Source: a bacterium (GTDB taxonomy: Bacteria; Hydrothermota; UBA3073; JACQXS01). Taken from it: 64,000 bases of DNA. The position numbers and the translations under genes were made by a program. The number at the start of each line of letters is the position of its first letter. Within the stretch, counting starts at the first letter, position 1. Location: assembly GCA_030605695.1 (NCBI GenBank), contig JAUWHX010000012.1, forward strand, positions 31,483-95,482, written 5' to 3'. Positions 42,735 to 57,394 of the stretch are shown here, piece after piece. A model generated the notes under the pieces. It did not search any database. It saw only the letters and a list, made by a program, of their open reading frames with translations, and had not been told where the DNA came from.

Positions 42735-42762
42735 TTGACAGATTTAAATTTGGCAGTATTTT
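42735..42762 (+). promoter_or_regulatory. sigma70-like promoter of the TetR gene
   Basis: TTGACA (42735-42740), 16 nt, TATTTT (42757-42762). Confidence 0.45.
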
Positions 42763-42766
42763 ATTA

Positions 42767-42793
42767 TTAGACTATTAAACTATTTTAGTCTAA
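42767..42793. promoter_or_regulatory. palindromic operator O1 (TTAGACTA-N11-TAGTCTAA)
   Basis: Perfect 8-bp arms at 42767-42774 and 42786-42793. It lies immediately downstream of the -10 of the TetR promoter. Confidence 0.6.
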
Positions 42794-42813
42794 ATGTCTA
42801 ATAAAATGAGATA

Positions 42814-43389
42814 ATGAAAGAAGATAGAAAAGAGGGTATTATTGAGACTGCACGAGACTTATTTGCACGATTCGGTTTCAAGAAGACTACCGTTGACGAG
42901 ATTGCCAGAGCTCTTCACATGGGTAAAAGCACAATCTACTATTACTTTGAAACCAAAGAGGATATTTTTAAGGCGGTGATAGAGAGAGAGAGTAAATTCT
43001 TGGCTATGAAAATCAAGAAAGCTGTAGACAAAGTAACTTCTCCAGTGGAAAAACTGCGGGTATTTATACTAACAAGGATGCAGTGTCTCAGGCAACTGGC
43101 TAATTTTTACAGTGTACTTAAAGATGAATATTTAGAGCATTACTCATTTATTGAGAAAGTAAGGAAGAGGGACTTTGAAGAAGAAATTGAAACGATAAAA
43201 ACCTTTCTAAAAGAAGGAGTGGAAAAAGGTATTTTTGCTATCAAAAACCCACGATTGACTTCCTTTGCAATTGTTACTGCCTTAAAAGGATTAGAATATC
43301 CCCTGACAATAGGAACTAAAACGACAGACATCAAAAGAAATGTTAATATCTTGTTAGAAACCTTGTTTAACGGGGTAAAAAAGAGATAA
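42814..43389 (+). CDS. TetR/AcrR-family transcriptional regulator
   Basis: 191 aa. N-terminal HTH ARDLFARFGFKKTTVDEIARALHMGKSTIYYYFETKEDIF. Confidence 0.85.
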   Translation: MKEDRKEGIIETARDLFARFGFKKTTVDEIARALHMGKSTIYYYFETKEDIFKAVIERESKFLAMKIKKAVDKVTSPVEKLRVFILTRMQCLRQLANFYSVLKDEYLEHYSFIEKVRKRDFEEEIETIKTFLKEGVEKGIFAIKNPRLTSFAIVTALKGLEYPLTIGTKTTDIKRNVNILLETLFNGVKKR

Positions 43390-43395
43390 ATTTTT

Positions 43396-43432
43396 TTGTC
43401 AAAATTAGACCAAAAAACTAATATGGTCTAAT
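43396..43432 (+). promoter_or_regulatory. promoter of the radical-SAM operon overlapped by operator O2 (ATTAGACCA-N11-TGGTCTAAT)
   Basis: TTGTCA (43396-43401), 17 nt, TAATAT (43419-43424). The 9-bp inverted-repeat arms at 43404-43412 and 43424-43432 have the same half-site (TTAGAC) and the same 11-nt spacing as O1. Confidence 0.6.
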
Positions 43433-43452
43433 AATCTATGGGGAGGTGTGTT

Positions 43453-44886
43453 ATGGTTGAGGTGAAGGATTTGGGTGCAAAAGCACTTAAGGGAGTTGCG
43501 CGTACCGCGGTTCGGAGCAGTACAATTAGAAAGCTTGCACTCAAAAAGATTGAGAGTGAGATGTATAAATCGATTACCTTGAAAAGAGCGGATACTTATC
43601 CTCCCAAGCAGATACAAGATGTGTTCTATATGGGAGATGCTTTGCTTCACTCGGCGGATAGGTCTATGTCTTGTAATATCTCTTCCGGATGTAGGAATGC
43701 CATTATAAATATTTTAGCAAAGGATATACTTACGGGTGGAGATATTAAGACGAAGGAAAAATTTGAGAGTGAATTTGGATTTATACCTCCGCTATTTCTT
43801 ACTATAAGTCCAAGTAATGCCTGTAATCTGAGGTGTAAGGGTTGTTATGCTAATGCCGGAGTCCAAAGTGTTGATAAACTTACTTTTGATGTGTTTGACC
43901 GAATTATACGAGAGACAAGAGAACTTTGGGGTTCTCGTTTTACAGTTATATCAGGAGGAGAGCCACTTCTTTATAAAGGAATTTTTGAGATAGCAGAAAA
44001 ACACAAAGATACATTCTTTTTGATGTATACAAATGGGACTCTTATTGATGAGAAGGTTGCAAGGAGACTTGCGGAAGCAGGTAATATTACTCCGGCTATT
44101 TCTGTTGAAGGATTTGAAAAGGAGACAGATGCACGAAGAGGAAAAGGAGTTTATAAGCGTATTCGGAAGGCAATGCAAAACTTGAAAGATGCTGGAGTTC
44201 CTTTTGGTTTATCTATCACCGCAACAAAACAAAATGTAGATATAATAACAAGCGATGAGTTTTATGATTTCTATTTTGAAAAAGAACCTAAAGCGACTTA
44301 TGGCTGGATATTTCATTATATGCCAATAGGCAGAAGTTATACAATTGAGCTTATGCCGACTCCGGAACAAAGACTTTTTATGTGGGAGAAGAATAGGGAA
44401 ATGGTGAGAAAACGAAAGATTCTTATTGCGGACTTCTGGAATGATGGGGTCGTCTCAGATGGATGCATATCAGCAGGTAGGACAGGGGGCTATTTTTACA
44501 TAAATTGGAATGGAGATTGTACTCCTTGTGTTTTTCAACCTTACGCTGTTCACAATATCAATAGGGTTTATAAGAATGGTGGCAATCTGAATACCGTTCT
44601 GAATTCTGAGTTCTTCAAGGCAATACGAAAGTGGCAAAATGAATATGGTTATGGGCAACCGAAGAATAAAAAAGAAAATCTCTTAAGACCTTGTGCTATT
44701 AGAGACCACTATGGGATGTATCATAAACTTTTAGAATGTTACAAACCTTATCCTATCGATAAGAGTGCCCGAGATGCCTTGAATGATGAGGAATACCGCA
44801 AGAAACTCACAGCATACGGAGAAAAAATAGGAGAATTAACAAAGGACATCTGGGAGAAGGAGTATCTGCAAAGGGAGGGAATTTGA
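43453..44886 (+). CDS. radical SAM enzyme with C-terminal auxiliary-cluster cysteines (SPASM/twitch-like)
   Basis: Start at the second ATG, with GGAGG 7 nt upstream. CX3CX2C = SNACNLRCKGCYAN. GGEPLL. C-terminal GCISAGRTGGYFYINWNGDCTPCVF (CX17CX2C), later RPCAIRDHY and LLECY. About 115 aa precede the SAM cluster. Confidence 0.85.
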   Translation: MVEVKDLGAKALKGVARTAVRSSTIRKLALKKIESEMYKSITLKRADTYPPKQIQDVFYMGDALLHSADRSMSCNISSGCRNAIINILAKDILTGGDIKTKEKFESEFGFIPPLFLTISPSNACNLRCKGCYANAGVQSVDKLTFDVFDRIIRETRELWGSRFTVISGGEPLLYKGIFEIAEKHKDTFFLMYTNGTLIDEKVARRLAEAGNITPAISVEGFEKETDARRGKGVYKRIRKAMQNLKDAGVPFGLSITATKQNVDIITSDEFYDFYFEKEPKATYGWIFHYMPIGRSYTIELMPTPEQRLFMWEKNREMVRKRKILIADFWNDGVVSDGCISAGRTGGYFYINWNGDCTPCVFQPYAVHNINRVYKNGGNLNTVLNSEFFKAIRKWQNEYGYGQPKNKKENLLRPCAIRDHYGMYHKLLECYKPYPIDKSARDALNDEEYRKKLTAYGEKIGELTKDIWEKEYLQREGI

Positions 44887-45122
44887 CATTATTTGAGAGA
44901 GCAAAGAAGATTATTCTCAAATACACAAATATACCTGAAGAACGGATTACACCGGAAGCATCTTTTACCGATGATTTGGGAGTGGACTCATCCGATATTA
45001 CTGGACTCATTATGAATATTGAGGACGAGTTCGGCATCGATATCATTGATACTGTGGAAAGACTCAGGACAGTGGAAGATGTGGTAGAGCATCTCCGTGC
45101 AAGGTTGCCAGGAAATGAATAA
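44883..45122 (+). CDS. acyl carrier protein (copy 1)
   Basis: 79 aa. FTDDLGVDSSDITGLIMNIEDEFGIDI contains the DS phosphopantetheine site. TTG start overlaps the radical-SAM stop as TTGA (44883-44886). Confidence 0.8.
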   Translation: MTLFERAKKIILKYTNIPEERITPEASFTDDLGVDSSDITGLIMNIEDEFGIDIIDTVERLRTVEDVVEHLRARLPGNE

Positions 45123-45152
45123 TCTTAAGTCAAATAATGGGAGGAACAAAAG

Positions 45153-48098
45153 ATGAGAAGATTTGCTAATCTGGTCATTAAATATCGGGTGATTATTATT
45201 GTTTCGGTGATTGGTTTAACTGGATTTTTTGGCTACCAGTTGAAGAATCTGAAGATAAATAGTGATATCCTCACTTACTTGCCCCAAGACGACCCTTTGG
45301 TAGTTCTATTTAACGAAGTTGGTGATAAGTTTGGCGGTAGTTCATTGGCTATGGTGGCGTTGGAAACCGACAATGTGTTCAACTATGAAACATTGAATAG
45401 AGTTAACGAAATCACTGAGAAATTCAAACAGATGGACGGAGTTTCTCAGGTGATGAGCTTAACAGATATTCTGGATATTAAAAAGACTGAATGGGGTTTG
45501 GAGGTTGGCAAGCTGATTGATAGACGTAATATCCCTGAAAGCCCGGATGAGCTGGAAAAACTGATGGAATATACTCTTTCTAAAGATATGTATAGAGGCA
45601 ACCTGGTTTCCGAAGATGGCAAGATAACGGTTATTATTGCACGTCTTGTAGAAGATATTGATAAAATAGAAGATGGGAAGCAAATGAAAGAACTTGTTAA
45701 AGAGACTCAGGGTGAGGAGAAGATATATTATGGTGGAATGCCATTCCAGATGATTTTCTTGGCAGACATCATTATGAAAGATTTGGGTAAGCTTATCCCA
45801 TTGGTTATTTTATTAGTGATGGCTACTCTCTTTTTCAGTTTTAGAAGTTTTCGGGGAATCTTTTTGCCACTGTCTACTGCTTTGATGAGTACAGTCTGGG
45901 CTTTGGGAATAATGAGTTTGATGAAAATTCCCTTGACCATTGCCGCAGATGCGATTCCAGTTTTGCTTATTGCCATTGGCAGTGCTTATGGAATCCACAT
46001 GCTTTCCAAATACAATGAGGATATTAGATTGGGAGATAATAAGATTCAAGGGATTAAAGATGCCTTGAGCGAAGTAGGGATTCCTATATTTTTAGCTGGT
46101 ATTACCACATTGATTGGCTTTTTGGCATTCTTGTCTTCCGACTTAAGTCTAATTCGGGAACTTGGTATTTTCACTGCTATTGGTGTGATGTTCGCTATGC
46201 TTATCTCTGTAACCTTCCTACCTGCAGTGCTTTCTCTATTAAAAGTCGGGAAGGTCAAACTGAACCATAAAGGAGTAGAAAACAATCTATTAACAAGACT
46301 AATGGACAGATTGGGAGCGTTTGTTCTTCGTCGCGAAAAACTCATCGTGGGAATGGGTATCGCTATTATTTTGGCTTCTTTGGTCGCTATTCCCAGACTA
46401 AAGCGAGAAGTCAATATGATTGACTACTTTGAAAAAGACAGCGAGATTAGGCAGACTGAAGAGATGATGGAAGAGAAACTTGGTGGGTCTATTCCAATTC
46501 AGCTTTTGGTTAAAGGAGATTTAAAGGACCCATTCGTTTTGAAAGAGATGCTCAATTTTGAGAAGTATTTAGAAACCCAACCCAATGTGAATGACCCTCA
46601 ATCTATTGCCGACTTAATTTGTGAAATAAACGGGGTAATGAATGACCATTATACCATTCCCGAAACGAGAGAAGGAGTAGCTAATCTTTGGTTGTTCATT
46701 GAGGGAAACGAAGTATTGAATCAATTGATAAATAGTCAAGCAGACGAAGGTTTAATTCAAGCAAAATTAGGTACAGTGAGCACGGGAGAAGTCAGGACTT
46801 TAGTTGATGCAATTGAGGATTATCTGAAGAATGAATTGAAAACGGATTTGCTTAAAGTCCAAATCTCTCTTGTTTCTTCGGATATGGCTGAGATATTGAG
46901 AATGAAACGAGTAGAGGAGATTCTATCAAAAATAAAACGGGATATTAAGATGAGAAATACCGAGTTTCAGGTTTCTGATACTACTCTGACAAAAGTTATC
47001 CTTGCGGGAATGCAGAGTGGACAGGAAGAAATCGACGAGATTTCAATAAAGAGATTGGAAAAAAGAATCACCGATTACTTCAAAAGTGACGAAGCAGATA
47101 TTCAGATAGAGGAGGTATCACCTCAAACGGAAAGAATTATTGCTAAAGTCGTCGCTGATGTCCTCAAACAATTGAAGATAGATGAGATTGATGAAAAAGA
47201 GATTATCAGCATCTTGAAGCGAGATATTTCTAAAAAGAGTTATGCTGGAGAGCCTGAAGTTTTGGGATATGCTGGTGAATCTATTATGGCAATCATAGCT
47301 GATTTTAGAAAATGGGCAAAGGTTAATAATCTCGTGCAGGGTTTGAACCCACTTCTTCCTGAAAATTTAAGGGATGACAGGGACTTCCTAAAAGACTTAC
47401 GAGATGATTGTTGGGAAATAAACGAAGACTGGCTTGCCGTAGAGAGTTCAAAATATGCTGACGCCTTCAATTCCGAAGATAGAGTGAGCTTAACTGCCAA
47501 ACAAACAGGGATGCCTATAATCTATATGGACATAGATAAAAAAACAATGAAGAGCCAGGCATTAAGTCTTTCCATTGCTATGTTTTTGGTTTTTCTTCTT
47601 TTGTCTTTCCAACTGAAATCCCTGATTGGTGGGTTAATCTCAATATCGCCTATCATTCTTACTATTCTCATCAATTTCATTCTGATGGCGGTTCTGAATA
47701 TTCCGTTAGACATAGTCACGGTTATGATTGGCAGTGTGGCTGTCGGGATTGGTATTGACTATACCATTCACTTTATCAACAGATTTAAGTCTGAGATGGG
47801 AAAGGAAAAGACAATTTTGGAAGCTTTGGACAAAACATTGGAAACGACAGGGAAGGCAATTCTCATCAATGCCATTTCTGTAATGATGGGATTTCTGGTT
47901 CTGGTTTTGGGAAGCATAGTTCCTATGCAGCGATTTGGTTATCTGATAGCATTTACGATGATAACCAGTGCTTTAGGGGCTATTACATTTTTGCCAGCCT
48001 TGATTCTTGTCACTAAGGCTGGGTTTGTTGGTGATTTTGGTCGTCTTGCCGGTAAACTGAAGAAGCGGACGACCGGATTTAACAATTCAGGGAGATGA
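45153..48098 (+). CDS. MMPL / RND-superfamily (HAE3-like) exporter
   Basis: 981 aa. N-terminal TM, periplasmic domain, 5-TM bundle (about aa 200-370), second large periplasmic domain, second 5-TM bundle (about aa 800-960). SD GGGAGG upstream. Confidence 0.85.
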   Translation: MRRFANLVIKYRVIIIVSVIGLTGFFGYQLKNLKINSDILTYLPQDDPLVVLFNEVGDKFGGSSLAMVALETDNVFNYETLNRVNEITEKFKQMDGVSQVMSLTDILDIKKTEWGLEVGKLIDRRNIPESPDELEKLMEYTLSKDMYRGNLVSEDGKITVIIARLVEDIDKIEDGKQMKELVKETQGEEKIYYGGMPFQMIFLADIIMKDLGKLIPLVILLVMATLFFSFRSFRGIFLPLSTALMSTVWALGIMSLMKIPLTIAADAIPVLLIAIGSAYGIHMLSKYNEDIRLGDNKIQGIKDALSEVGIPIFLAGITTLIGFLAFLSSDLSLIRELGIFTAIGVMFAMLISVTFLPAVLSLLKVGKVKLNHKGVENNLLTRLMDRLGAFVLRREKLIVGMGIAIILASLVAIPRLKREVNMIDYFEKDSEIRQTEEMMEEKLGGSIPIQLLVKGDLKDPFVLKEMLNFEKYLETQPNVNDPQSIADLICEINGVMNDHYTIPETREGVANLWLFIEGNEVLNQLINSQADEGLIQAKLGTVSTGEVRTLVDAIEDYLKNELKTDLLKVQISLVSSDMAEILRMKRVEEILSKIKRDIKMRNTEFQVSDTTLTKVILAGMQSGQEEIDEISIKRLEKRITDYFKSDEADIQIEEVSPQTERIIAKVVADVLKQLKIDEIDEKEIISILKRDISKKSYAGEPEVLGYAGESIMAIIADFRKWAKVNNLVQGLNPLLPENLRDDRDFLKDLRDDCWEINEDWLAVESSKYADAFNSEDRVSLTAKQTGMPIIYMDIDKKTMKSQALSLSIAMFLVFLLLSFQLKSLIGGLISISPIILTILINFILMAVLNIPLDIVTVMIGSVAVGIGIDYTIHFINRFKSEMGKEKTILEALDKTLETTGKAILINAISVMMGFLVLVLGSIVPMQRFGYLIAFTMITSALGAITFLPALILVTKAGFVGDFGRLAGKLKKRTTGFNNSGR

Positions 48099-48142
48099 GT
48101 TTAAGAAAATCAAGAAACCGCTGTTTATGAGGTAACCAAAAC

Positions 48143-50257
48143 ATGTCAAGAAAAATTTATGCTTTCGTTTTTCTACTAAGTTTTGTAGAATATGCTTTTT
48201 GCCAGAATATTCTGGTTAATCCAGGATTTGAGAACGGAGAGGAAAGCTGGATAGATTTTTCCACTAATCCGGAACATACCGATTTATCAATAGATTATTC
48301 TGTTAGCCATAGTGGGAATGCCAGCGCGAAGATTTATATCAATGATACTTTGGAAGTTAGCGCTGGCTGGTTACAAGGAGTAAATATAATAGCAGGACAT
48401 CACTATCTTTTAGAAGGTTTTATCAAAACTGATAATGTGCAGGGAATGGTCTTTCCGTATCTCCATTTTAGCGATCAATCAGATTCACTTCTTTATGGAA
48501 TGTTACTTATGCCTTTAAATAGAACAACAAATTGGAAATTAACTCAGTCACGATTTATCGCTCCAGAAAACAGCGTAGGATTGGTTTTATTTCTACTCTT
48601 TGTTGGCGAGAAAGGAACGGGATGGTTTGATGACCTCAGTTTAATTGACCTCACAGATACAACCGCTCATCAATTTTCAATCAATTTCAGCGAAACTATC
48701 GGTGAAATCAAACCGTTTTTGGCAACAAACTGTGGGCCAGTGAGACCAGGAAATCCTAATGATCTTACTTCAAAATTCCAAGAGATTGGAATTGATTTTG
48801 TTAGAACTCATGATTACTATGGTCCTTGTGATATACATACTATATTTCCTGATACATCAAGAGATCCCCTTGATTCTACTGCATATTATTTTGCTTCTAC
48901 AGATTCCGTGATAGAACCAATAATCAATGCCGGATGTAATATCCTTTTCAGACTTGGGGAGAGTTGGGAATACGAGCCAATATATAATGTTCCTCCTGCG
49001 GATTTTGAAAAATGGGCACAAGTATGTGTGCAAATAATAAAACACTATAATGATGGGTGGAATAATGGTTATCATTACAATATTGAATATTGGGAGATAT
49101 GGAACGAACCTAATCTTCAGCATCATTGGGATGGCACAGTAGAACAGTACTGCCATCTGTATCATATTACGGCAAATAGAATAAAAGAATACAATCCATC
49201 GTTAAAGGTTGGTGGACCTGCAATAGCATATATCTACAATGCATCATTTATCGAAACTTTTCTTGACTCAGTTGTGACTTACAATATACCTCTGGACTTT
49301 TTTTCCTATCATTTCTATAATTTTGCCAACCCTTTTGATTATTTATATGCTGATAGCGTTATGAAGAAATATCTTGCAGATGCAGGTTTGTCATACGTAG
49401 AAAGGTTTAATACCGAATGGAATACTTATGTATATGATGAGCAGAACTCAATAGATTGGGGGCGGGATGATGCCTTAAATGCCGCATTAACTGTTTCAGC
49501 GATTTCGTATCTTCAAGATTCTGATTTATCAAAAGCGTTTCGTTATCGCACAGATGAATACCTTTTTGGATTATTCAGAGATAATGGAGATTATTCATAT
49601 TCAGGATTGGCGCTTAAGGCAATAGGTGAATTCAGAAAGACTTCTGTCCGTCTCTACACTACAGGAGGTGATAGTATGGGAACGACTATTTTAGCTGGAA
49701 AGTCGCAAACAGATGATAAAATAAATCTATTAATCTCGGATAACTCATCTATTGCAAATGGGTATGAGTTTGTCGTTAATGGATTATTACAAGACAAAAT
49801 TTATAAATATCAGACATATCGCATTGATAACACAATGGAATGGGAATTTTTACAGGAAGGAAATATTACAGATGCTCAAAACATTATAAAGTGTACAGGT
49901 CAATCGCCCTTTGTGGATATAATTTCTATTTCTCAAACCTCTGGTATTGCTGAAGATAATATTAAGTCTATTGTCAATTCTATATATTTATATCCAAATC
50001 CATTCTGCTCAAAAACAAGTTTAGAGTTTAGAGTTCAGGGTTCAGAGTTAAAAGACTTGCAACTCCAGATTTATGATTTAGCAGGTAGACTCGTCCGAAC
50101 ATTGCCAGTTACACAATCACCTAATAACACTATTACCAAAGTAACTTGGGATGCAAAGGATGACTTGGGTAAAAGTGTGTCATCGGGAATCTATTTTTAT
50201 AAATTGAAAGTGGATGATAAGTTTTCACAAACCAAAAAACTGCTACTCTTGAGGTAG
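48143..50257 (+). CDS. secreted clan GH-A-type glycoside-hydrolase-like protein with N-terminal CBM-like domain and T9SS C-terminal domain
   Basis: 704 aa. Signal peptide. NILVNPGFENGEESW (CBM4/9-like jelly roll start). YWEIWNEPN (clan A acid/base NEP motif). C-terminus LYPNPF...LQLQIYDLAGRLV...GIYFYKL...KKLLLLR. Confidence 0.6.
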   Translation: MSRKIYAFVFLLSFVEYAFCQNILVNPGFENGEESWIDFSTNPEHTDLSIDYSVSHSGNASAKIYINDTLEVSAGWLQGVNIIAGHHYLLEGFIKTDNVQGMVFPYLHFSDQSDSLLYGMLLMPLNRTTNWKLTQSRFIAPENSVGLVLFLLFVGEKGTGWFDDLSLIDLTDTTAHQFSINFSETIGEIKPFLATNCGPVRPGNPNDLTSKFQEIGIDFVRTHDYYGPCDIHTIFPDTSRDPLDSTAYYFASTDSVIEPIINAGCNILFRLGESWEYEPIYNVPPADFEKWAQVCVQIIKHYNDGWNNGYHYNIEYWEIWNEPNLQHHWDGTVEQYCHLYHITANRIKEYNPSLKVGGPAIAYIYNASFIETFLDSVVTYNIPLDFFSYHFYNFANPFDYLYADSVMKKYLADAGLSYVERFNTEWNTYVYDEQNSIDWGRDDALNAALTVSAISYLQDSDLSKAFRYRTDEYLFGLFRDNGDYSYSGLALKAIGEFRKTSVRLYTTGGDSMGTTILAGKSQTDDKINLLISDNSSIANGYEFVVNGLLQDKIYKYQTYRIDNTMEWEFLQEGNITDAQNIIKCTGQSPFVDIISISQTSGIAEDNIKSIVNSIYLYPNPFCSKTSLEFRVQGSELKDLQLQIYDLAGRLVRTLPVTQSPNNTITKVTWDAKDDLGKSVSSGIYFYKLKVDDKFSQTKKLLLLR

Positions 50258-50274
50258 CGAAAGGAGATGGTAGT

Positions 50275-51009
50275 ATGAAAGGGCTTTTGGAAATAGGTGT
50301 TGTTCTACTTCTGCCGATTATTCTTTTGGCAGAGACAGGCAACGAAATCTTGAAGAAGGTAGAGGATGCTATGAATGCTCCGAATGATAGAATGGCAAGT
50401 ATGAAGCTCACGCTGATAGATAAGGATGGGGACTCCAAGGTTCGTGAGATAAAAATGTGGCAATTAGGAAAAGAGAAACGACTTATAAAATTCCTTTCTC
50501 CTGCTGATGTAAAAGGAGTTGGATTCTTAGTGCTCTCAGATAACGAGATGTACCTCTATATGCCTGCATTCAAAAAGATAAGACGTATTGCTTCTCATGT
50601 GAAGAATCAAAGTTTTATGGGCACGGATTTTTCTTACAACGATATCGGCAAGAGTCAATATACTAAAGACTTTACCGCTGAGACTAAAGAGGGAACAGAG
50701 AAAGAGTATGTATTGGAACTTACACCCAGGCCAAAATCAGATATTGATTATGCTAAACTTGTTATGCGGGTGGATAAAGCACATTATATTCCGAGCAAGG
50801 TGGAATACTACAACGAGAAAGGGAAAGTTCTCAAGGTTATGGAAAATGAAGATACAGAAAAAATAGATGGCTACTGGACTCCCAAGAAAGTGACAATGAA
50901 GAATCTAAAAACAGAGCATAAGACTGTTATGGAACTTACAGTTGTTAAGCACGACTCTGGGCTTAAAAAAGATATGTTCACTAAACGAATGCTCAAAAGA
51001 GCGGAATAA
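50275..51009 (+). CDS. LolA-like outer-membrane lipoprotein-sorting protein
   Basis: 244 aa. Signal peptide. KLTLIDKDGDSKVREIKMWQ, LIKFLSPADVKGVGFLVL, MYLYMPAFKKIRRI, SFMGTDFSYNDI. This is the pattern I associate with the LolA_like (PF17131-type) family found next to MMPL/HAE3 exporters. Confidence 0.7.
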   Translation: MKGLLEIGVVLLLPIILLAETGNEILKKVEDAMNAPNDRMASMKLTLIDKDGDSKVREIKMWQLGKEKRLIKFLSPADVKGVGFLVLSDNEMYLYMPAFKKIRRIASHVKNQSFMGTDFSYNDIGKSQYTKDFTAETKEGTEKEYVLELTPRPKSDIDYAKLVMRVDKAHYIPSKVEYYNEKGKVLKVMENEDTEKIDGYWTPKKVTMKNLKTEHKTVMELTVVKHDSGLKKDMFTKRMLKRAE

Positions 51010-51085
51010 GACTTAAGAGTTGAGGGTCGAGAGTTTTGGAACAGTATAATCCATACTTCTCTGCTCTTTTAAATAGAGGTGTATA

Positions 51086-52435
51086 ATGACAAAGATTTCT
51101 TTCTGTGTCATCCCTACATTATTAGGGGTGAGTATTGTAAGTAGTCCCAATCTCTGTATGGGTGAAGTGGATATTTCTGGTAATCTCAAACTGGACAAGC
51201 GTTTTCTCATCACAGATAGTGTGAGAATTGCAGATTATCCATATCACGAACTTAATCTAAGACTGCAATCAAAGCCTTCCAAGAATCTATCTCTCTATAC
51301 CAGTATGAAATTTAGGCTATGGGACCAAAATCTTGCAAGTAGTTCAGCGGAGTTGACTGAATTTTCAACTAACAATCCTTATGAACTGTTTCTATGGGAA
51401 GCTTATGCTGACCTTTACAGTTTTATCTTTGATGAATTAGACCTGCGGATTGGCAAACAGCGTATAGCTTGGGGAACAGCAGATAAACTCAACCCGACGG
51501 ATAATCTAAATCCTGATGATTTCTCCGACCCTCTGAATTTCGGGGAAAAGGTGCCTACCGAAGCTGTAAATGCTACCTATAACTTAACCGATGAATATAA
51601 TTTAAGTGCTGTGTGCCTCCCATCGCTCAAGCCTATTTTGTTGCCCAGAGGCGAGTTTCCTTTATTGGGTGATGCAAATGCTCTTCCGTTACCTCCGGGG
51701 ACAAATCTTGTAGAGTCAATGGAGCATCTTACCTTTCCTGACAGGAAGCCTGAAAACTCTATGTATGCCATAAAATTATCTGGAAAGGTCGAGGAGTACG
51801 ACTTTTCACTATCCTATTTTTGGGGTTATGATGATGTGCCTATTGCAAATAAGCTTGTCGTAACTCCTGTTGATACTTTGGGAAATGTGAAACTTGACAC
51901 CTATTTAGGATTTCCAGAAATCCGTGCTGCTGGCTTTGACTGTGCTGGAGAACTTTTTTCCATAGGTCTCTGGGGAGAAGCAGCGGTATTCTTGCCTGAA
52001 GAAGTAAAGATGAGAATAGAAATGCCAACAGGAGTTCAGGATACAACCATTCTATCTGATGAGTCTTATGTGAAGTTCACTGTTGGTGGAGATTATACTT
52101 CTGAGACCGGAATCTATATCAATGCTCAATGGATGCATGGCTTCTTTACTGAGCGGGGAAAAGATAATCTTGAGGACTACATTATGGCAGGTATTGAGCA
52201 GAAATTCAAGAACGATGAGATTAAGGTCGGTGTAGCTGGTGGTTTAGAGATAAAAGATGTTGAGGATTTAGAAGAAAACTACGGCACTGTGATTATCCCT
52301 GAAGTATCTTATGCTCCAACCGATAATGTAAAGCTCCTGTTTGGAGCATTCTTTTTGGATGGAAAGTTAGGGACCCTCTTTGGCGGATGGAAGGAGCAGA
52401 ACCAACTTTACTTCAAGACAGAAGTAAGCTTCTAA
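51086..52435 (+). CDS. outer-membrane beta-barrel protein (DUF1302-like)
   Basis: 449 aa. Signal peptide. LDLRIGKQRIAWGTADKLNPTDNLNPDD. Alternating beta-strand pattern. C-terminal ...YFKTEVSF (terminal Phe). Confidence 0.55.
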   Translation: MTKISFCVIPTLLGVSIVSSPNLCMGEVDISGNLKLDKRFLITDSVRIADYPYHELNLRLQSKPSKNLSLYTSMKFRLWDQNLASSSAELTEFSTNNPYELFLWEAYADLYSFIFDELDLRIGKQRIAWGTADKLNPTDNLNPDDFSDPLNFGEKVPTEAVNATYNLTDEYNLSAVCLPSLKPILLPRGEFPLLGDANALPLPPGTNLVESMEHLTFPDRKPENSMYAIKLSGKVEEYDFSLSYFWGYDDVPIANKLVVTPVDTLGNVKLDTYLGFPEIRAAGFDCAGELFSIGLWGEAAVFLPEEVKMRIEMPTGVQDTTILSDESYVKFTVGGDYTSETGIYINAQWMHGFFTERGKDNLEDYIMAGIEQKFKNDEIKVGVAGGLEIKDVEDLEENYGTVIIPEVSYAPTDNVKLLFGAFFLDGKLGTLFGGWKEQNQLYFKTEVSF

Positions 52436-52458
52436 AGTAACGAATTGAAGTTAGGATA

Positions 52459-53577
52459 ATGTGGAAGAAACAGGTTATTTTTTCAATTCTATGCTTAACA
52501 TTTTTCTCAAGGGGGTTTGCTGGCACTGAAAAAGCTCCTCTTCTTGAGGGTGCCTATTGGGGGCTGGAAACAGGAGCCAGACCTTTCGCAATGGGAGGGG
52601 CATTTGTTGCTGTCGGTGGCGACGCTAGTTGTATTTACTGGAATCCAGCTGGATTGGGATTACTTCCTCAATCAACAGCAATGTTCGGCTTCAGCGATAT
52701 GAAGGATATAGAGGTTGAGAATATGGAGGTCGTAAATCTCTTTAGAACAGCGACAGGACTGAGTGGTAAGAGATTGTCATTTGTTGCATTTTCAGAAAAT
52801 CAGGGAGCTTTAAGCTGGTGTCCACTATCAAGTGTATGTAGAAACAATATGTATTTTCAGAACATCAATGCGGATGGAGATACGATTGAGAGATGGACAG
52901 ACCTAGAATACAGCATAAACGAATTTGTTCTATCAATGACCACGCTTATGGGAGCCACCGACCAAGAAATCCAGGGAATGCCTTGTATTCTGGGGATGAA
53001 TGTCAAATACCTGAATGGCAGGATAGGAGTTGCAGAAAAAAGTAGAAAAAATGGAGTGTGGGAAGAACCAAATATAAATCTGGATACTGGTAATGGGTAT
53101 AGCATAGACCTTGGTTTCTTATATCCGAAAAAGTGGATTGCTCTTGGTGCCTCAGCACAGAATGTTCTGGCAAAACTATACTGGCACGATTATAGTGCAG
53201 ACCGAATAAATGCGAATTTGCGAGGCGGTATAGCTATAAAACTTTTTAATAGTCTCCTTTTAGCTTCAGATGTTGAAAAAAGGTGGGATGAGAAAGCCCC
53301 TTACATTTATCATATTGGAGTAGAGAAAACATTCATACGAGGGAAAAAGCAAAGAAGCAATTTTGGCACCAAAGATAAGCAATCATTGAAATACGGAGAC
53401 CTCTCAATCCGACTCGGTACTTATGGTACAGATTTATTGGAGGAAGAGAAAATCTACACAGGGGGAATTGGTTACAGTTATTCTAATTATAGGGTAGATA
53501 CATCTGTGTCAGGAAAATATGAAGGGAAGGATTCCAAGCTCTCATTCCGGCTGACAATCTCAGTGCCATTTGAATAA
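52459..53577 (+). CDS. outer-membrane beta-barrel protein (PorV/FadL/TraF-like N-terminal motif)
   Basis: 372 aa. Signal peptide. GARPFAMGGAFVAVGGDASCIYWNPAGLG. Beta-rich. Confidence 0.5.
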   Translation: MWKKQVIFSILCLTFFSRGFAGTEKAPLLEGAYWGLETGARPFAMGGAFVAVGGDASCIYWNPAGLGLLPQSTAMFGFSDMKDIEVENMEVVNLFRTATGLSGKRLSFVAFSENQGALSWCPLSSVCRNNMYFQNINADGDTIERWTDLEYSINEFVLSMTTLMGATDQEIQGMPCILGMNVKYLNGRIGVAEKSRKNGVWEEPNINLDTGNGYSIDLGFLYPKKWIALGASAQNVLAKLYWHDYSADRINANLRGGIAIKLFNSLLLASDVEKRWDEKAPYIYHIGVEKTFIRGKKQRSNFGTKDKQSLKYGDLSIRLGTYGTDLLEEEKIYTGGIGYSYSNYRVDTSVSGKYEGKDSKLSFRLTISVPFE

Positions 53578-53653
53578 TATGTAGTATCTTTAAATGATGG
53601 TTACAATATTTGAGTAAATGAGCAGGGAAAAATATAAGAAAATAGGAGGAGAG

Positions 53654-54058
53654 ATGAAAAAGTTTTACATAATTTTGGTCGGGCTTTTGGTATTTGCTGG
53701 CTGCAAGGATGTGCAAGAGGAAATTGAGCAGTGCACCGTGTCTGGAAAGGTTACAAATGGAGGACAGGCTTTAGCCAATACTTATGTCCTGCTCTTGAAA
53801 TCAAAGGAGGGCGATATTAACTTAAGCAACGGCTGGAAGGCAGGAGACGATGGGACTTATAAGATAATAAGAGTTGACCCTTCTGTCTATTATGTAACAG
53901 TAATAGCAGATACTAACGGTAATATTGCCTATGAACCTGATAAGGATTTGATAGGATGGTATGACCCAGATGATGATCTTGAGCCTGATTCAATTGTAGT
54001 AAACGAGGGAGACGACCTCACAGGCATAGACATTGACACACTATATATTGCACCATAG
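53654..54058 (+). CDS. small lipoprotein with carboxypeptidase-regulatory-like fold (tentative)
   Basis: Start at MKKFYIILVGLLVFAGCKD (lipobox FAGC), with AGGAGG upstream. CTVSGKVTNGGQALANTYVLL. Confidence 0.5.
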   Translation: MKKFYIILVGLLVFAGCKDVQEEIEQCTVSGKVTNGGQALANTYVLLLKSKEGDINLSNGWKAGDDGTYKIIRVDPSVYYVTVIADTNGNIAYEPDKDLIGWYDPDDDLEPDSIVVNEGDDLTGIDIDTLYIAP

Positions 54059-54078
54059 ATATTGAAAAAAGGAGGTGC

Positions 54079-54180
54079 ATGGGTATATTTGAGAAAATAG
54101 TTTCAGCGATAGTAATCGCTTTTGAATGGCTCGGCAGAAAGATACAAGAAATCATTGACATTATGCTGTTCAGGAGATAA
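54079..54180 (+). CDS. 33-codon small ORF with strong Shine-Dalgarno (possible small membrane protein or leader)
   Basis: AAAGGAGGTGC then ATG at 54079. MGIFEKIVSAIVIAFEWLGRKIQEIIDIMLFRR*. Below the track size cutoff. Confidence 0.3.
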   Translation: MGIFEKIVSAIVIAFEWLGRKIQEIIDIMLFRR

Positions 54181-54793
54181 GAAGTTTGTGAAGCACCAAA
54201 ATAGCAAATCAGCTTTTTATTATACAGTTTGTCTGGCCACTCGGATAATCCTTACAATATTTTACTCATTAAAGGTAAGAGGGGCAGAGAATATTTTAGG
54301 CAAAGGGGCTTACATTATTGCAGCAAATCATATCAATTGGCTTGACGGTTTTGTGTTAGTTGCTTTATTTAAGGAGAAAATTACCTTTTTGTCTGCATCC
54401 TATCTGTTTGAAAGACCAATAGTTAGAAGAGCATTCCTATCCAGACTGGGGTGTATTCCAGTTGGTCAGGCACAAACGAGAAAAGCGATTAAAGAAGCCT
54501 TGAATATATTAGAAAAGGGAGGAATAATAGGAATTTTCCCCGAGGGTGGTGTAAGGTTAACAAAAGAGATGCAGGAAATCAAGCGAGGAGCTTTCTTTCT
54601 TGCCCATACAGCAAATGTTCCCATTGTTCCAGTGGGTATTCAAGGAACTAATCATATCTTCTCATTATCTCGTAAAATTCCTCGTCCCGGTGGGATAACT
54701 GTTAATATTGGAAAGCCAATTTATTGTAAAGAAACCGACAGGGAGACTAATGAGATTATTGTTGCTAAAATTACTGAACTTGTGAAGAATTAA
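54122..54793 (+). CDS. PlsC-type (LPLAT) acyltransferase, copy 1
   Basis: IIAANHINWLDGF (HX4D), GIFPEGG, PIVPVGIQG. The track start is TTG 54122. GTG 54188, preceded by AGGAG, is a more likely start. Confidence 0.75.
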   Translation: MNGSAERYKKSLTLCCSGDKKFVKHQNSKSAFYYTVCLATRIILTIFYSLKVRGAENILGKGAYIIAANHINWLDGFVLVALFKEKITFLSASYLFERPIVRRAFLSRLGCIPVGQAQTRKAIKEALNILEKGGIIGIFPEGGVRLTKEMQEIKRGAFFLAHTANVPIVPVGIQGTNHIFSLSRKIPRPGGITVNIGKPIYCKETDRETNEIIVAKITELVKN

Positions 54794-54827
54794 CAAAAGA
54801 CATCTGGGAGAAGGAGTATTTGCAAAG
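54786..54827 (+). pseudogene. relic of a radical-SAM gene 3' end
   Basis: AGAATTAACAAAAGACATCTGGGAGAAGGAGTATTTGCAAAG matches 44832-44873, the last codons of the radical-SAM gene, with 2 substitutions in 42 nt. Confidence 0.7.
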
Positions 54828-54840
54828 TGGAAGATAAGAA

Positions 54841-55497
54841 ATGAGAGCTTCAAAGAAATTATTCGTTCTATTTCTCTTTAGCGTAGCAATGGCATTTGTG
54901 GAAGCAGCGGTGGTAGTCTATCTCAGAGAACTTTACTATCCTGAAGGCTTTTCACTTCAGCTTAAAGCGATACCCCGAGATATTTTTGCCGTAGAACTGG
55001 GTAGAGAGTTTTCAACCATAGTAATGTTAATTGCCATAGGAGTGATAGCCGGAAGAAATTTCATAGAACGGTTTTCTTATTTCCTCTTTTGCTTTGGTGT
55101 ATGGGACATCTTTTATTACATTTTTCTGAAGCAAACATTGAATTGGCCAGAATCATTACTGGCATGGGATATTCTATTTCTTATACCCGTTCCCTGGATC
55201 GCTCCTGTTTTGGCACCCGTGCTTGTTGCTACTACAATGGTGATAATTGCAGTAATATCAGTCCTGAAAATAGAAAAGGGTTATGTGTTAAGATTCTTGA
55301 AATCAGACTGGATATTGGGTTTTACCGCAACTCTGATTATTTTTGTGTCATTTATCCTATACCTTCCGAGAAGCCAGAAGTTATTTTATCCATATCATTG
55401 GGAACTCTTTATACTGGGTAAAGCCGTGGGTCTTTTCGCTTTCTATCGAGTTTTGAAACGAGCAAGCAGTGAACGACCAGTAATTGCTTTAAAATGA
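54841..55497 (+). CDS. integral membrane protein, about 6 TM, unknown family
   Basis: 218 aa. FVLFLFSVAMAFVEAAVVVYLRELYYPEGF, WDIFYYIFLKQTLNWPESLLAWDILFLIPVPWIAPVLAPVLVA. Confidence 0.6.
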   Translation: MRASKKLFVLFLFSVAMAFVEAAVVVYLRELYYPEGFSLQLKAIPRDIFAVELGREFSTIVMLIAIGVIAGRNFIERFSYFLFCFGVWDIFYYIFLKQTLNWPESLLAWDILFLIPVPWIAPVLAPVLVATTMVIIAVISVLKIEKGYVLRFLKSDWILGFTATLIIFVSFILYLPRSQKLFYPYHWELFILGKAVGLFAFYRVLKRASSERPVIALK

Positions 55498-56408
55498 AAC
55501 AGAGAGTTCAAATGCTTAATGGAGTCAAGTATTATTCTATAAGAGTAGCTATTATTTTAAGAAAATTCGTTGGGCGCTCTGTATTCCAAAAGGGAGCAAG
55601 AATAGTTGCATGGCTTTCCTATATTCTTCTTAGACAAAGGAGAAAAATCTTAACAGAAAATCTAAGGCATATAGCACAAGGTGAGTCTCGTCTCGTGAGG
55701 GAGACTTTTATTAACTTTGGATTAGCTTTTGCTGATTTTCTTGCAATACCTTCTATGAATAGCAAGGAGATATGTAGGATGGTAAAAGTTCATGGACTCC
55801 CAAATCTTGATAGAGCACTGTCAGCTGGAAAGGGTGTGATTTTTGTGGGTGCACATCTCGGCAATCCGAACCTTGAAGCGTGCTATATCGCCGGCTTGGG
55901 ATACAAGGTCGTTGGCGTTGCAGAATCTCTTGGTCCTGAGGAAAGATTTTTTAATCTGTACTCAAAACTTAGAGGTAAAACTGGTATGGAAATAGTACGA
56001 TTAGAAGATAAGAGAGTCGGGATGAAAGCAGTAGAAGCATTGAGAAGAAATAAAGTTCTTGTGTTGCTTGGAGATAGAGATATTACAGAAAATGGAGTAA
56101 GGGTCAATTTTTTAGGACAGGAATCCTTACTTCCGAAAGGTCCTGCTCTTCTTTCACTTAAAACAGGTGCTCCTATTGTCACAACATTCTTTGTTCGGGA
56201 TAATGGAAAATACACAGCTATAATAGAATCCCCTATAGAATTTAAAAGGAACAATGGACTTGAGAAAGATATTCAGGACTTAACTCAGCTAATAGCCAAT
56301 AGATTGGAGAGAAATATTCTTACCTATCCCACCCAATGGTATGTGTTTCAGATGGATTGGAAGGAGCAAACAAATGATTATGAAAATCTATTTGAGAAAA
56401 CTTCTTGA
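55494..56408 (+). CDS. LpxL/HtrB-family (lauroyl/myristoyl-type) lipid acyltransferase
   Basis: 304 aa. GKGVIFVGAHLGNPNLEA, VLVLLGDRD, LLPKGPALLSLKTGAPIV. 4-nt overlap with the upstream gene. Confidence 0.7.
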   Translation: MKQRVQMLNGVKYYSIRVAIILRKFVGRSVFQKGARIVAWLSYILLRQRRKILTENLRHIAQGESRLVRETFINFGLAFADFLAIPSMNSKEICRMVKVHGLPNLDRALSAGKGVIFVGAHLGNPNLEACYIAGLGYKVVGVAESLGPEERFFNLYSKLRGKTGMEIVRLEDKRVGMKAVEALRRNKVLVLLGDRDITENGVRVNFLGQESLLPKGPALLSLKTGAPIVTTFFVRDNGKYTAIIESPIEFKRNNGLEKDIQDLTQLIANRLERNILTYPTQWYVFQMDWKEQTNDYENLFEKTS

Positions 56409-56418
56409 CATAGAAGTT

Positions 56419-56496
56419 GTTGGTATTTTCTCTTTCTATCGGGTTTTAAAACGAGCAAGTAATAAATACCATTTAGAGAGAGGAGAATCCATATAA
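56419..56496 (+). pseudogene. relic of the 3' end of a paralogue of the 54841-55497 membrane-protein gene
   Basis: 56419-56466 aligns to 55426-55473 with about 8 substitutions. Conceptual translation VGIFSFYRVLKRASNK versus VGLFAFYRVLKRASSE. Confidence 0.65.
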
Positions 56497-56523
56497 AATC
56501 AAATATCTTTACCTGAGGCGAAA

Positions 56524-57165
56524 ATGCTTTACTCAATCATACATTCAATCCTAAGAGTTATCTTGTCAGTCTATATTAGATTAGGAACTGTTGGGCTTGA
56601 GAATATTCCAAAACAGGGTGGGGTAATACTGGCACCGAACCATCCCAGTGACTTGGATTCATTTGTCCTTGGGGCTGCAATTAAAAGGCAGCTCCATACA
56701 ATGGGCAAAGAGGAACTGTTCAGAAAGCGATTTGCAGAATTTATTTTTAGAAAATTGAACGCCTTTCCTGTAAAAAGGGGAGAAACAGACAGAGAAGCTA
56801 TACGAACTGCTGTTGATATTCTTGAAAGTGGACATGTAATTGATATATATCCCGAAGGAACAGTAAGTAGAGATGGGGCTTTACAAGAACCAAAACTTGG
56901 AATAGCTTTCATTGCCTTACGGTCAAAAGTACCTGTTGTTCCTGTAGCAATAATCGGTATTTTTAACGTTATGTCAAAGGGACAAAAATTTCCTCGTCCT
57001 CATAAGGTAGTCATCAAATTTGGTAAGCCTCTCTATTTTGACGAATACTATGATAAATCTTACAACAAAGAAATATTGAAAATTGTAACCGCACAAATAA
57101 TGAGCAAGATAAAAATACTATTGAACTCGGACGCCTTGGAGAAAACACACTATGTCAGTATTTGA
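56524..57165 (+). CDS. PlsC-type (LPLAT) acyltransferase, copy 2
   Basis: ILAPNHPSDLDSF (HX4D), IYPEGTVSRDG, VPVVPVAIIG. Confidence 0.8.
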   Translation: MLYSIIHSILRVILSVYIRLGTVGLENIPKQGGVILAPNHPSDLDSFVLGAAIKRQLHTMGKEELFRKRFAEFIFRKLNAFPVKRGETDREAIRTAVDILESGHVIDIYPEGTVSRDGALQEPKLGIAFIALRSKVPVVPVAIIGIFNVMSKGQKFPRPHKVVIKFGKPLYFDEYYDKSYNKEILKIVTAQIMSKIKILLNSDALEKTHYVSI

Positions 57166-57394
57166 AAGAGTAAAGAAGGTTATTGTAGAAGTGCTGAGTA
57201 TAAAAGAGACAGAAGTTTTCCCAGAAACTTCTTTTATAGACAATCTGGGAGTAGATAGTCTTGATTATGTTGCACTACTTCAAGCACTTGAAGTAGAGTT
57301 TAATATCCAGATCCCAGACTCAGATGCCGAAAAAATCGGAACGGCGAGAGATACAGCGGAGTATCTTCGTGCAAGGTTGCCAGCAAACGAATAA
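57152..57394 (+). CDS. acyl carrier protein (copy 2)
   Basis: 80 aa. FIDNLGVDSLDYVALLQALEVEFNIQI. Overlaps the PlsC copy 2 end by 14 nt. Confidence 0.85.
   Translation: MSVFERVKKVIVEVLSIKETEVFPETSFIDNLGVDSLDYVALLQALEVEFNIQIPDSDAEKIGTARDTAEYLRARLPANE

Follow-up and report, generated by a model that had tools for sequence, protein, structure and literature searches.

The subject of this study is a block of 14 genes in a 64,000-nt stretch of bacterial DNA (assembly GCA_030605695.1, contig JAUWHX010000012.1, positions 31,483 to 95,482; lineage Hydrothermota; the organism belongs to candidate division WOR-3), which we call the window and whose own numbering is used for all coordinates. The block occupies positions 42735 to 57394. 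It begins with a gene for a TetR-family regulator, continues with a gene for a radical S-adenosylmethionine (SAM) enzyme, hereafter rSAM, and further encodes two acyl carrier proteins (ACPs), three acyltransferases, an MMPL-type exporter, a LolA-like protein, two outer-membrane barrels, a small lipoprotein, a protein with six transmembrane segments (6-TM protein) and a protein resembling glycoside hydrolase family 39 (GH39). The reading that we favour is that these genes would make and export a specialised envelope lipid with coupled tails.

A preliminary description of the locus, made from the sequence alone, had reported 14 co-directional genes on the plus strand, and this layout was reproduced. 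An open reading frame (ORF) finder returned the same 14 ORFs, and the quoted spacings are right: the TTGA overlap of rSAM and ACP1, the gaps of 30 nt between ACP1 and the MMPL gene and of 17 nt before the LolA-like gene, and the overlaps of 4 nt (6-TM and LpxL-like genes) and 14 nt (PlsC2 and ACP2). Other gaps inside the block lie before PlsC2 (115 nt) and before the DUF1302 gene (76 nt). Scans of all 14 proteins against Pfam and NCBIfam upheld the domain calls of that description. It had also correctly seen a locus centred on lipids, with rSAM as the sole unusual chemistry enzyme within the window and with no ketosynthase (KS), ketoreductase (KR), dehydratase (DH) or adenylation gene in the block.

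The rSAM gene (43453..44886) encodes a protein with matches to Radical_SAM (PF04055, 88.5 bits) and SPASM (25 bits). Its start is probably the ATG at 43453 and not position 43438 as given by the ORF finder, whose call would be 15 nt too long, because a GGAGG precedes ATG 43453 and because the orthologues in two related loci, L011 and L006, start at the equivalent ATG (loci of other genomes and metagenome contigs are numbered with the prefix L). In an alignment of 47 sequences of the family, the cysteines of the core CxxxCxxC motif (C129, C133 and C136) are invariant. Beyond these only C343, C364 and C419 are invariant, which suggests one auxiliary cluster in which a ligand position is open or taken by something other than cysteine. 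A model made with AlphaFold2 is confident (pLDDT 88.7) and has an N-terminal domain that is an all-helical bundle of five helices.

The rSAM family is found in at least 579 species of GTDB, all of them metagenome-assembled genomes (MAGs) of uncultured anaerobes, and comprises 479 representatives (50% clustering, E <= 1e-30). Members with a full-length identity of about 50% occur in WOR-3, KSB1, Stahlbacteria, Latescibacteria, Aminicenantes, Nitrospirae, Zixibacteria, Ignavibacteria, Planctomycetes and others; further representatives come from Synergistales, Nanoarchaeota (DPANN archaea) and Firmicutes. In several WOR-3 MAGs there is a second copy, about 50% identical, on another contig and without the neighbours of the locus (L011/L031, L007/L074 and L042/L040). 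Given this second copy, together with the order of the tree, the window rSAM is a specialised, WOR-3-specific paralogue. Tandem or near-tandem rSAM duplicates are also seen, namely in L006 (10004-12900), L044 (7604-11458) and L040 (3478-6438). Three rSAM loci stand under unlikely taxon labels (L010 'archaeon', L050 'Shapirobacteria' and L059 'Saccharibacteria'); they are of bacterial WOR-3/FCB type and are probably mis-binned.

The closest link to a known function leads to Mss, a radical SAM enzyme that joins two fatty-acyl tails and so gives membrane-spanning, diabolic-type diacids. It has been validated in Thermotoga maritima (Tmari_0825) and Thermoanaerobacter ethanolicus (WP_129545148.1; Sahonero-Canavesi et al. 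2022, PMC13159169). The thresholds set for Mss homologues were E <= 1e-50 with >= 30% identity in 2022, and E <= 1e-30 with > 30% identity in a 2026 paper in Applied and Environmental Microbiology on iso-diabolic-acid lipids (PMC13274423), whose Supplementary Table 3 lists the Clostridium ihumii protein WP_040330614.1 under 'Mss homologe'. In a BLASTP comparison, the window rSAM is 33% identical to this protein (457 aa, E 4e-79). The alignment is full length and includes the N-terminal helical domain as well as the C-terminal extension, and WP_040330614.1 falls in the same 90% cluster as P0204, a representative of the rSAM family. Most likely, the window rSAM thus belongs to the family whose members the literature regards as Mss homologues, by way of a listed homologue and not of a validated Mss itself. 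rSAM is not an unclassifiable enzyme; since it falls among the Mss homologues, its likely chemistry, a tail-to-tail C-C coupling, would be of a known kind. The earlier interpretation, in which rSAM modifies an ACP-bound acyl chain, is supported in part: the locus is centred on lipids, and the substrate of Mss has been proposed, and not demonstrated, to be a glycerolipid (PMC13274423), so that an acyl-ACP is not necessarily meant.

Like Mss, the window rSAM is a radical SAM enzyme of ~460-490 aa that is confined to anaerobes, and its family is spread over the same phyla, among them candidate phyla, Synergistetes and DPANN. Unlike Mss as published, it shares its operon with ACPs, acyltransferases and an exporter; gene context is not described in the Mss paper, and the genomic context of the Mss homologue in C. 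carboxidivorans was uninformative. In the literature that we searched, there was no paper that links Mss with an exporter of the resistance-nodulation-division (RND)/MMPL type or describes the gene context of Mss.

Two other enzymes, Tes (the glycerol dialkyl glycerol tetraether synthase GDGT-MAS, PDB 7TOL) and Gms, are radical SAM proteins with auxiliary Fe-S clusters that form C(sp3)-C(sp3) bonds between lipid tails, and they are the presumed mechanistic model for Mss. We considered whether the window rSAM is an orthologue of Tes and rejected this. A phmmer match to Tes covers only the SAM core (residues 120-255, E 1.9e-6), the structural match is poor (see below), and outside the core only three cysteines are invariant in the rSAM family, compared with two auxiliary clusters in Tes and Gms. 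The hallmarks of Tes, that is, full-length similarity, three [4Fe-4S] clusters and a rubredoxin-type site, are thus lacking in rSAM; a rubredoxin-type domain is present in Tes and absent from Gms.

Close relatives show that the block is made of parts. In L011, a MAG whose rSAM is 97% identical, the flanks are the same (SerRS, RNase PH and QueF on one side; an iron-containing alcohol dehydrogenase (Fe-ADH), an ORF without a family and RluD on the other), and between them there is only TetR-rSAM-6TM-PlsC2-ACP2-ACP1. L006, with an rSAM of 82% identity, has TetR-rSAM-rSAM-PlsC2-ACP2-ACP1-MMPL-LolA-x-DUF1302-PorV-like-lipoprotein (x stands for any other gene), and L007, with 76%, has TetR-PlsC2-ACP-rSAM-LpxL-like-hydrolase-MMPL-LolA-DUF1302-lipoprotein-patatin-PlsC1. 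The block is composite and consists of two modules: one is the lipid core, and the other serves transport and has been gained, lost and rearranged, the MMPL-LolA-like-DUF1302 module being an add-on to the six-gene core. The 14 genes are not one conserved unit, as L011 has the core alone and the GH39-like gene is specific to the window. In the window itself, the upstream flank consists of IleRS, DksA-like, LspA, SurA-like, SerRS, RNase PH and QueF genes, and the convergent downstream flank of Fe-ADH, an ORF without a family and an RluD-like gene; with such housekeeping flanks, the limits given for the block are right. The ORF without a family, at 58714-59712 on the minus strand between the Fe-ADH and RluD-like genes, encodes 332 aa, gave no match in Pfam or NCBIfam and has a conserved counterpart of 326 aa in the equivalent place in L011.

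Beside rSAM and TetR, the core contains ACP1 (44883..45122, PP-binding, serine motif DSS) and ACP2 (57152..57394, PP-binding, canonical DSLD), which are 48% identical to each other. The two PlsC/Aas-type acyltransferases, PlsC1 (54122..54793) and PlsC2 (56524..57165, overlapping ACP2), belong to PF01553 and have intact HX4D motifs (HINWLD and HPSDLD, respectively); in NCBIfam both match best to acyl-ACP:phospholipid acyltransferase (Aas), namely to its acyltransferase domain. The third acyltransferase (55494..56408) is of the LpxL/PatA type (PF03279, Lip_A_acyltrans, 130 bits). In L007 we find a 70% identical orthologue of PlsC1, and an orthologue of the LpxL/PatA-type enzyme (75%) adjoins rSAM there. 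A PlsC-ACP pair is kept in L005, L006, L007 and L011.

The 6-TM protein (54841..55497) is part of the six-gene core, and its gene adjoins rSAM in L011 and L059 and also occurs in the cluster of L104. Searches of Pfam, NCBIfam and the PDB sequences gave no match, and its AlphaFold2 model (pLDDT 87) has no match among the PDB folds either (best E 1.2). The 6-TM family has about 5000 sequences, including IALB_0278 of Ignavibacterium album, whose gene stands alone; the invariant charged residues of the protein are E21, R29, E52, R55, E56, D89, K97 and D110. The ACPs, the LpxL-like enzyme and the 6-TM protein are lineage-specific accessories. Other phyla instead carry patatin, PlsC, FabH, GT2, phasin-like and ABC1-kinase genes at their rSAM loci.

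The transport module begins with an RND exporter of the inner membrane (45153..48098) of the MMPL/HAE3 type (PF03176, 194 bits), for which the best NCBIfam match is HAE3 (TIGR00921, 293 bits, below the cutoff of 352), followed by HpnN. Its orthologues are 83-87% identical in relatives from the lineage of the window (L006, L007 and the metagenome locus L094), 63% in KSB1 and 50% in Latescibacteria. The predicted periplasmic carrier is LolA-like (50275..51009; PF17131 200 bits, DUF1329 29.9 bits) and has a signal peptide without a lipobox. Next to it lies a DUF1302-like outer-membrane barrel (51086..52435; PF06980 25.6 bits, just over the cutoff of 23.2), and then a second barrel (52459..53577) with a weak match to the PorV/PorQ family (52 bits, cutoff 90), an orthologue of 89% identity in L006 and relatives of 30% in L089 and L101. 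The small lipoprotein (53618..54058, lipobox FAGC) has orthologues in L006 (91%) and L007 (43%). There are variants of this arrangement elsewhere: in the metagenome locus L097 (689-6900), the LolA-like and DUF1302 genes come after a tandem pair of MMPL genes (960 and 964 aa), and in L006 a gene for a 23S rRNA intervening-sequence protein (PF05635, 17796-18170) lies between the LolA-like and DUF1302 genes.

Such a combination is known from AmeABCD of Castellaniella defragrans, in which an HAE3 RND pump, a DUF1302 protein, a DUF1329/LolA-like protein and AmeC export hydrophobic compounds and provide monoterpene tolerance (PMC6394551). The window likewise encodes an HAE3/MMPL pump, a LolA-superfamily protein and a DUF1302 barrel together, and an HAE3 pump is thought to carry hydrophobic molecules outward from the inner membrane. 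The two systems differ in that the LolA-like protein of the window is of the short PF17131 type (244 aa) and not a 451-aa DUF1329 protein, and in that the window has a second barrel and a lipoprotein in addition. An AmeC-type component (COG4447, BNR/PSII-like) was not found, as none of the 14 proteins has such a domain. Furthermore, the window module is tied to lipid-biosynthesis genes, that of AmeABCD to a catabolic island. Further known analogues are BstA and HpnN, which moves hopanoids.

Between the MMPL and LolA-like genes lies the gene of the GH39-like protein (48143..50257; Glyco_hydro_39 82 bits), which ends in a C-terminal sorting domain of the type IX secretion system (T9SS; Por_Secre_tail 32 bits). 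It is absent from the equivalent position in L006 and L007, and is probably a window-specific insertion outside the pathway. Two more ORFs of the window, at 15309-16574 (plus strand) and 25256-26704 (minus strand), have similar sorting tails, so that T9SS cargo is common in this genome.

The preliminary description had placed the block under the control of TetR, and this remains plausible. The TetR protein (42814..43389) has a TetR_N domain (PF00440, 61 bits), and in NCBIfam it comes closest to FadR, a fatty-acid regulator, far below the cutoff. Two copies of the palindrome TTAGAC-N15-GTCTAA are present in the window, compared with 0.07 expected: once upstream of the TetR gene (42767..42793) and once in the spacer between TetR and rSAM (43405..43431), which is 84% conserved with L011 and L006. 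Among 87 loci the motif is found only in the three close relatives L006, L007 and L011, at equivalent positions (in L007, for example, just upstream of its TetR gene). It is a good candidate for the TetR operator. Upstream of the first palindrome lies a promoter-like site, TTGACA-16-TATTTT (42735..42762, plus strand), which is a consensus match only (10 of 12 positions), and the second palindrome overlaps a promoter-like site at 43396-43424 before the rSAM gene. Promoter and terminator scans barely exceed the shuffled background and were not used for delimiting transcription units. An Rfam scan of 42-58 kb gave no match.

Does the association between rSAM and the transporter extend beyond the close relatives? 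We looked at it from two sides, from 84 rSAM loci and from a metagenome scan with an alignment of the MMPL protein, which gave 30 loci at 37-83% identity. Many of the 30 MMPL contigs are cut off; 13 loci have 5 kb or more of flank and count as informative. In the 84 rSAM loci, the neighbours are PhaR/phasin-like (25), TetR (22), patatin (14), ABC1 kinase (10), PlsC (8), LolA-like (7), MMPL (6) and ACP (5) genes; rSAM contexts looked at in Nitrospirae and Latescibacteria held no transporter. From the MMPL side, TetR lies immediately upstream in 24 of the 30 loci, LolA-like genes are present in 17 and DUF1302 genes in 14, and rSAM is found co-directional within 8 kb in nine. These nine are made up of seven of the 13 informative loci and two shorter ones, and rSAM is co-directional in every case. 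With near-duplicates collapsed, there are eight distinct MMPL loci with rSAM and four informative ones without it. The coupling between rSAM and transporter is therefore real: a minority pattern from the rSAM side (6 of 84), and a strong one from the MMPL side.

The gene order varies across phyla, and rSAM is often interleaved among the transporter genes. For example, we see TetR-MMPL-rSAM-x-LolA-DUF1302-phasin-ABC1-DAGK-PlsC in KSB1 (L028), MMPL-LolA-rSAM in Latescibacteria (L034), TetR-MMPL fragment-rSAM-x-6TM in L059, TetR-MMPL-rSAM-LolA in L088, TetR-MMPL-DUF3108-LolA-rSAM-GT2-patatin-LysE-DUF1302 in L099 and TetR-FabH-x-x-6TM-GT2-MMPL-LolA-rSAM-DUF1302 in L104. The co-occurrence check that the preliminary description had called for thus came out in its favour, since the combination of rSAM, MMPL, LolA-like and DUF1302-like genes recurs in WOR-3, KSB1 and Latescibacteria and on many metagenome contigs. 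The extra genes that recur in these clusters (FabH, GT2, PlsC, patatin, phasin/PhaR-like and ABC1 kinase) are lipid-biosynthetic or lipid-remodelling, and the presence of FabH, GT2, PlsC and patatin argues for biosynthesis and an endogenous cargo rather than for xenobiotic efflux. What was known before is the Mss family (2022) and the poorly understood AmeABCD/HpnN-type module; a conserved coupling of the two, along with FabH, ACPs, GT2, patatin and acyltransferases and with TetR as the gate, did not turn up in the literature that we searched.

Some of these clusters have features of their own. A dedicated FabH (ketoacyl-ACP synthase III, ~330 aa) is encoded in L089 (2338), L101 (1465), L104 (6062) and L094 (13720 and 18667), and in several clusters a GT2 glycosyltransferase (~374 aa) lies with FabH directly upstream of MMPL (GT2 at 8862 in L104, and equivalents). 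FabH and GT2 in this position hint at special primer-derived acyl chains and at a glycolipid product. L089 also holds a UppS-like prenyltransferase. A different rSAM gene set is seen in Aminicenantes, KSB1, Calditrichia and others (L015, L017, L020, L044, L028 and L101); it consists of TetR, a phasin/PhaR-like protein of ~100 aa, an ABC1/UbiB-type kinase, patatin, PlsC and a ~145-aa protein without assignment, and by its appearance is a lipid-remodelling operon of its own.

On balance, we lean towards the view that the block is a TetR-regulated island of two modules that makes and exports a specialised, tail-coupled envelope lipid. Its core module would consist of TetR, rSAM, the 6-TM protein, PlsC2, ACP2 and ACP1, joined here by PlsC1 and the LpxL/PatA-like acyltransferase. 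The dedicated ACPs and the acyltransferases of the Aas/PlsC and LpxL/PatA types would build or remodel a glycerolipid or glycolipid with particular acyl chains. On this substrate, whether phospholipid- or ACP-bound, rSAM would employ the SAM cluster together with a single auxiliary Fe-S cluster to abstract hydrogen from unactivated carbons of the acyl chains and would then link two chains by a C-C bond, giving a long alpha,omega-diacyl lipid of the bolaform or membrane-spanning kind. The transport module (HAE3/MMPL pump, LolA-like carrier, DUF1302-like barrel, second PorV/FadL-like barrel and small lipoprotein) may take the product out of the inner membrane, across the periplasm and into the outer membrane. 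TetR is predicted to sit on the palindromes at its own promoter and that of rSAM, and a lipid ligand probably releases it.

Several points weigh against this. The link to Mss is a two-step chain at ~33% identity, a distance at which radical SAM families can switch their chemistry, and the Clostridium protein at its middle is an Mss homologue by listing. In a Foldseek search of the PDB, the structures nearest to the rSAM model are the generic SPASM/twitch enzymes SuiB, SkfB and anSME (TM-score ~0.47), and GDGT-MAS appears only at rank 26 (TM-score 0.39); the structure search gives no extra support either for or against an Mss- or Tes-like function. Mss alone sufficed for the formation of diacids in E. 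coli, so that the ACPs need not serve rSAM, and the window has no acyl-ACP synthetase or fatty acid synthase gene that would explain how the ACPs are loaded. As regards transport, its direction is assumed from the HAE3 precedent. About 78 of the 84 rSAM loci are without the MMPL module and about one third of the informative MMPL loci are without rSAM; therefore each module can work alone.

It is possible, if rather unlikely, that the architecture is as proposed and the product is exported, with rSAM carrying out another chemistry: an intramolecular cross-link or cyclisation, a Gms-like H-type bridge, or a BtrN/anSME-like dehydrogenation of a hydroxyl of the head group or of a sugar. The modest identity to an Mss homologue known by listing leaves room for this, and the nearest structures are dehydrogenases or cross-linking SPASM/twitch enzymes. 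One auxiliary site with three cysteines, against two auxiliary clusters in Tes and Gms, points the same way, and the GT2 of related clusters together with the PatA-like acyltransferase of the window would fit a glycolipid head group as the target. On the other hand, the alignment with the Mss homologue is full length with both terminal extensions, the taxonomic distribution equals that of Mss, and it is enzymes of acyl chains (patatin, PlsC, FabH and ACP), not of sugars, that dominate among the neighbours.

We think it unlikely that the TetR-MMPL-LolA-like-DUF1302 part serves the efflux, tolerance or uptake of exogenous hydrophobic compounds, with rSAM and the acyltransferases only adapting the cell's own membrane and their product not being the cargo. 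AmeABCD does provide monoterpene tolerance with the same three families, and a TetR gene beside an RND pump, as in 24 of the 30 loci, is the classic arrangement of efflux systems; the four distinct informative MMPL loci that lack rSAM and the locus L011, which lacks the transporter, fit this explanation as well. However, in several phyla rSAM is placed in among the genes for the MMPL, LolA-like and DUF1302 proteins, the FabH, GT2, PlsC and patatin genes of the same clusters suggest an endogenous product, and the AmeC-type component is absent.

That a lipid core, a transporter and a T9SS glycosidase, each an independent operon, have come together by chance seems to us very improbable. The block is composite, L011 has only the core, the GH39-like gene is unique to the window, and there are the 115-nt and 76-nt gaps and promoter-like sites inside the block (the latter from a scan barely above its background). 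Against this stand the association between rSAM and transporter, which is recurrent and reciprocal across phyla with varied gene orders, the common direction of all 14 genes and their three overlaps.

The architecture had also been compared with aryl-polyene and flexirubin clusters. In these, two ACPs, acyltransferases of the LPLAT type, a small membrane protein, a LolA-like protein and an MMPL exporter form the export and anchoring half, and the block resembles this half. The resemblance holds for the architecture only: genes of a type II polyketide synthase (KS/chain length factor, KR and DH) are found neither among the 14 genes nor in the flanks (34.5 to 60.6 kb), the chemistry enzyme is rSAM, and there is no Pfam or NCBIfam match specific to the aryl-polyene/flexirubin system. 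We therefore rejected this reading, and likewise that of rSAM as a SPASM-type maturase of ribosomally synthesised and post-translationally modified peptides, both of which lack their defining features and deserve hardly any credence: for all that the maturases SkfB and SuiB are among the top Foldseek and PDB matches and that a 49-aa ORF lies upstream of rSAM in L005, no conserved small precursor ORF adjoins rSAM in the 84 loci, the N-terminal helical bundle is not a winged-helix peptide recognition element, none of the curated NCBIfam models, maturases included, comes near its cutoff (the maturase models stay far below theirs), and KS/chain length factor, KR, DH and thioesterase genes are absent from the window and its close relatives.

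Going beyond the single locus, we put forward tentatively, as something that is doubtful and still worth stating, that several uncultured phyla of diderm anaerobes (WOR-3, KSB1, Latescibacteria and others) may have a dedicated pathway in which their own ACPs or FabH would supply special acyl chains for an Mss-type tail-to-tail coupling, possibly on the two ACPs, and in which an HAE3-LolA-like-DUF1302 system would deliver a membrane-spanning or bolaform (glyco)lipid to the outer membrane. If true, no earlier trafficking system for lipids that span the membrane would precede it, and it would point to new anaerobic sources of biomarkers of the branched tetraether (brGDGT) type. Branched tetraether and diabolic-acid lipids are in wide use as palaeoclimate proxies, and their anaerobic producers and their biosynthesis are only partly known. 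The locus offers a testable hypothesis, at the level of an operon, of how such lipids may be built, regulated and delivered to the outer membrane in phyla that have never been cultured, and it suggests an endogenous candidate cargo for the module of HAE3, LolA-like and DUF1302 proteins, which is widespread and poorly understood.

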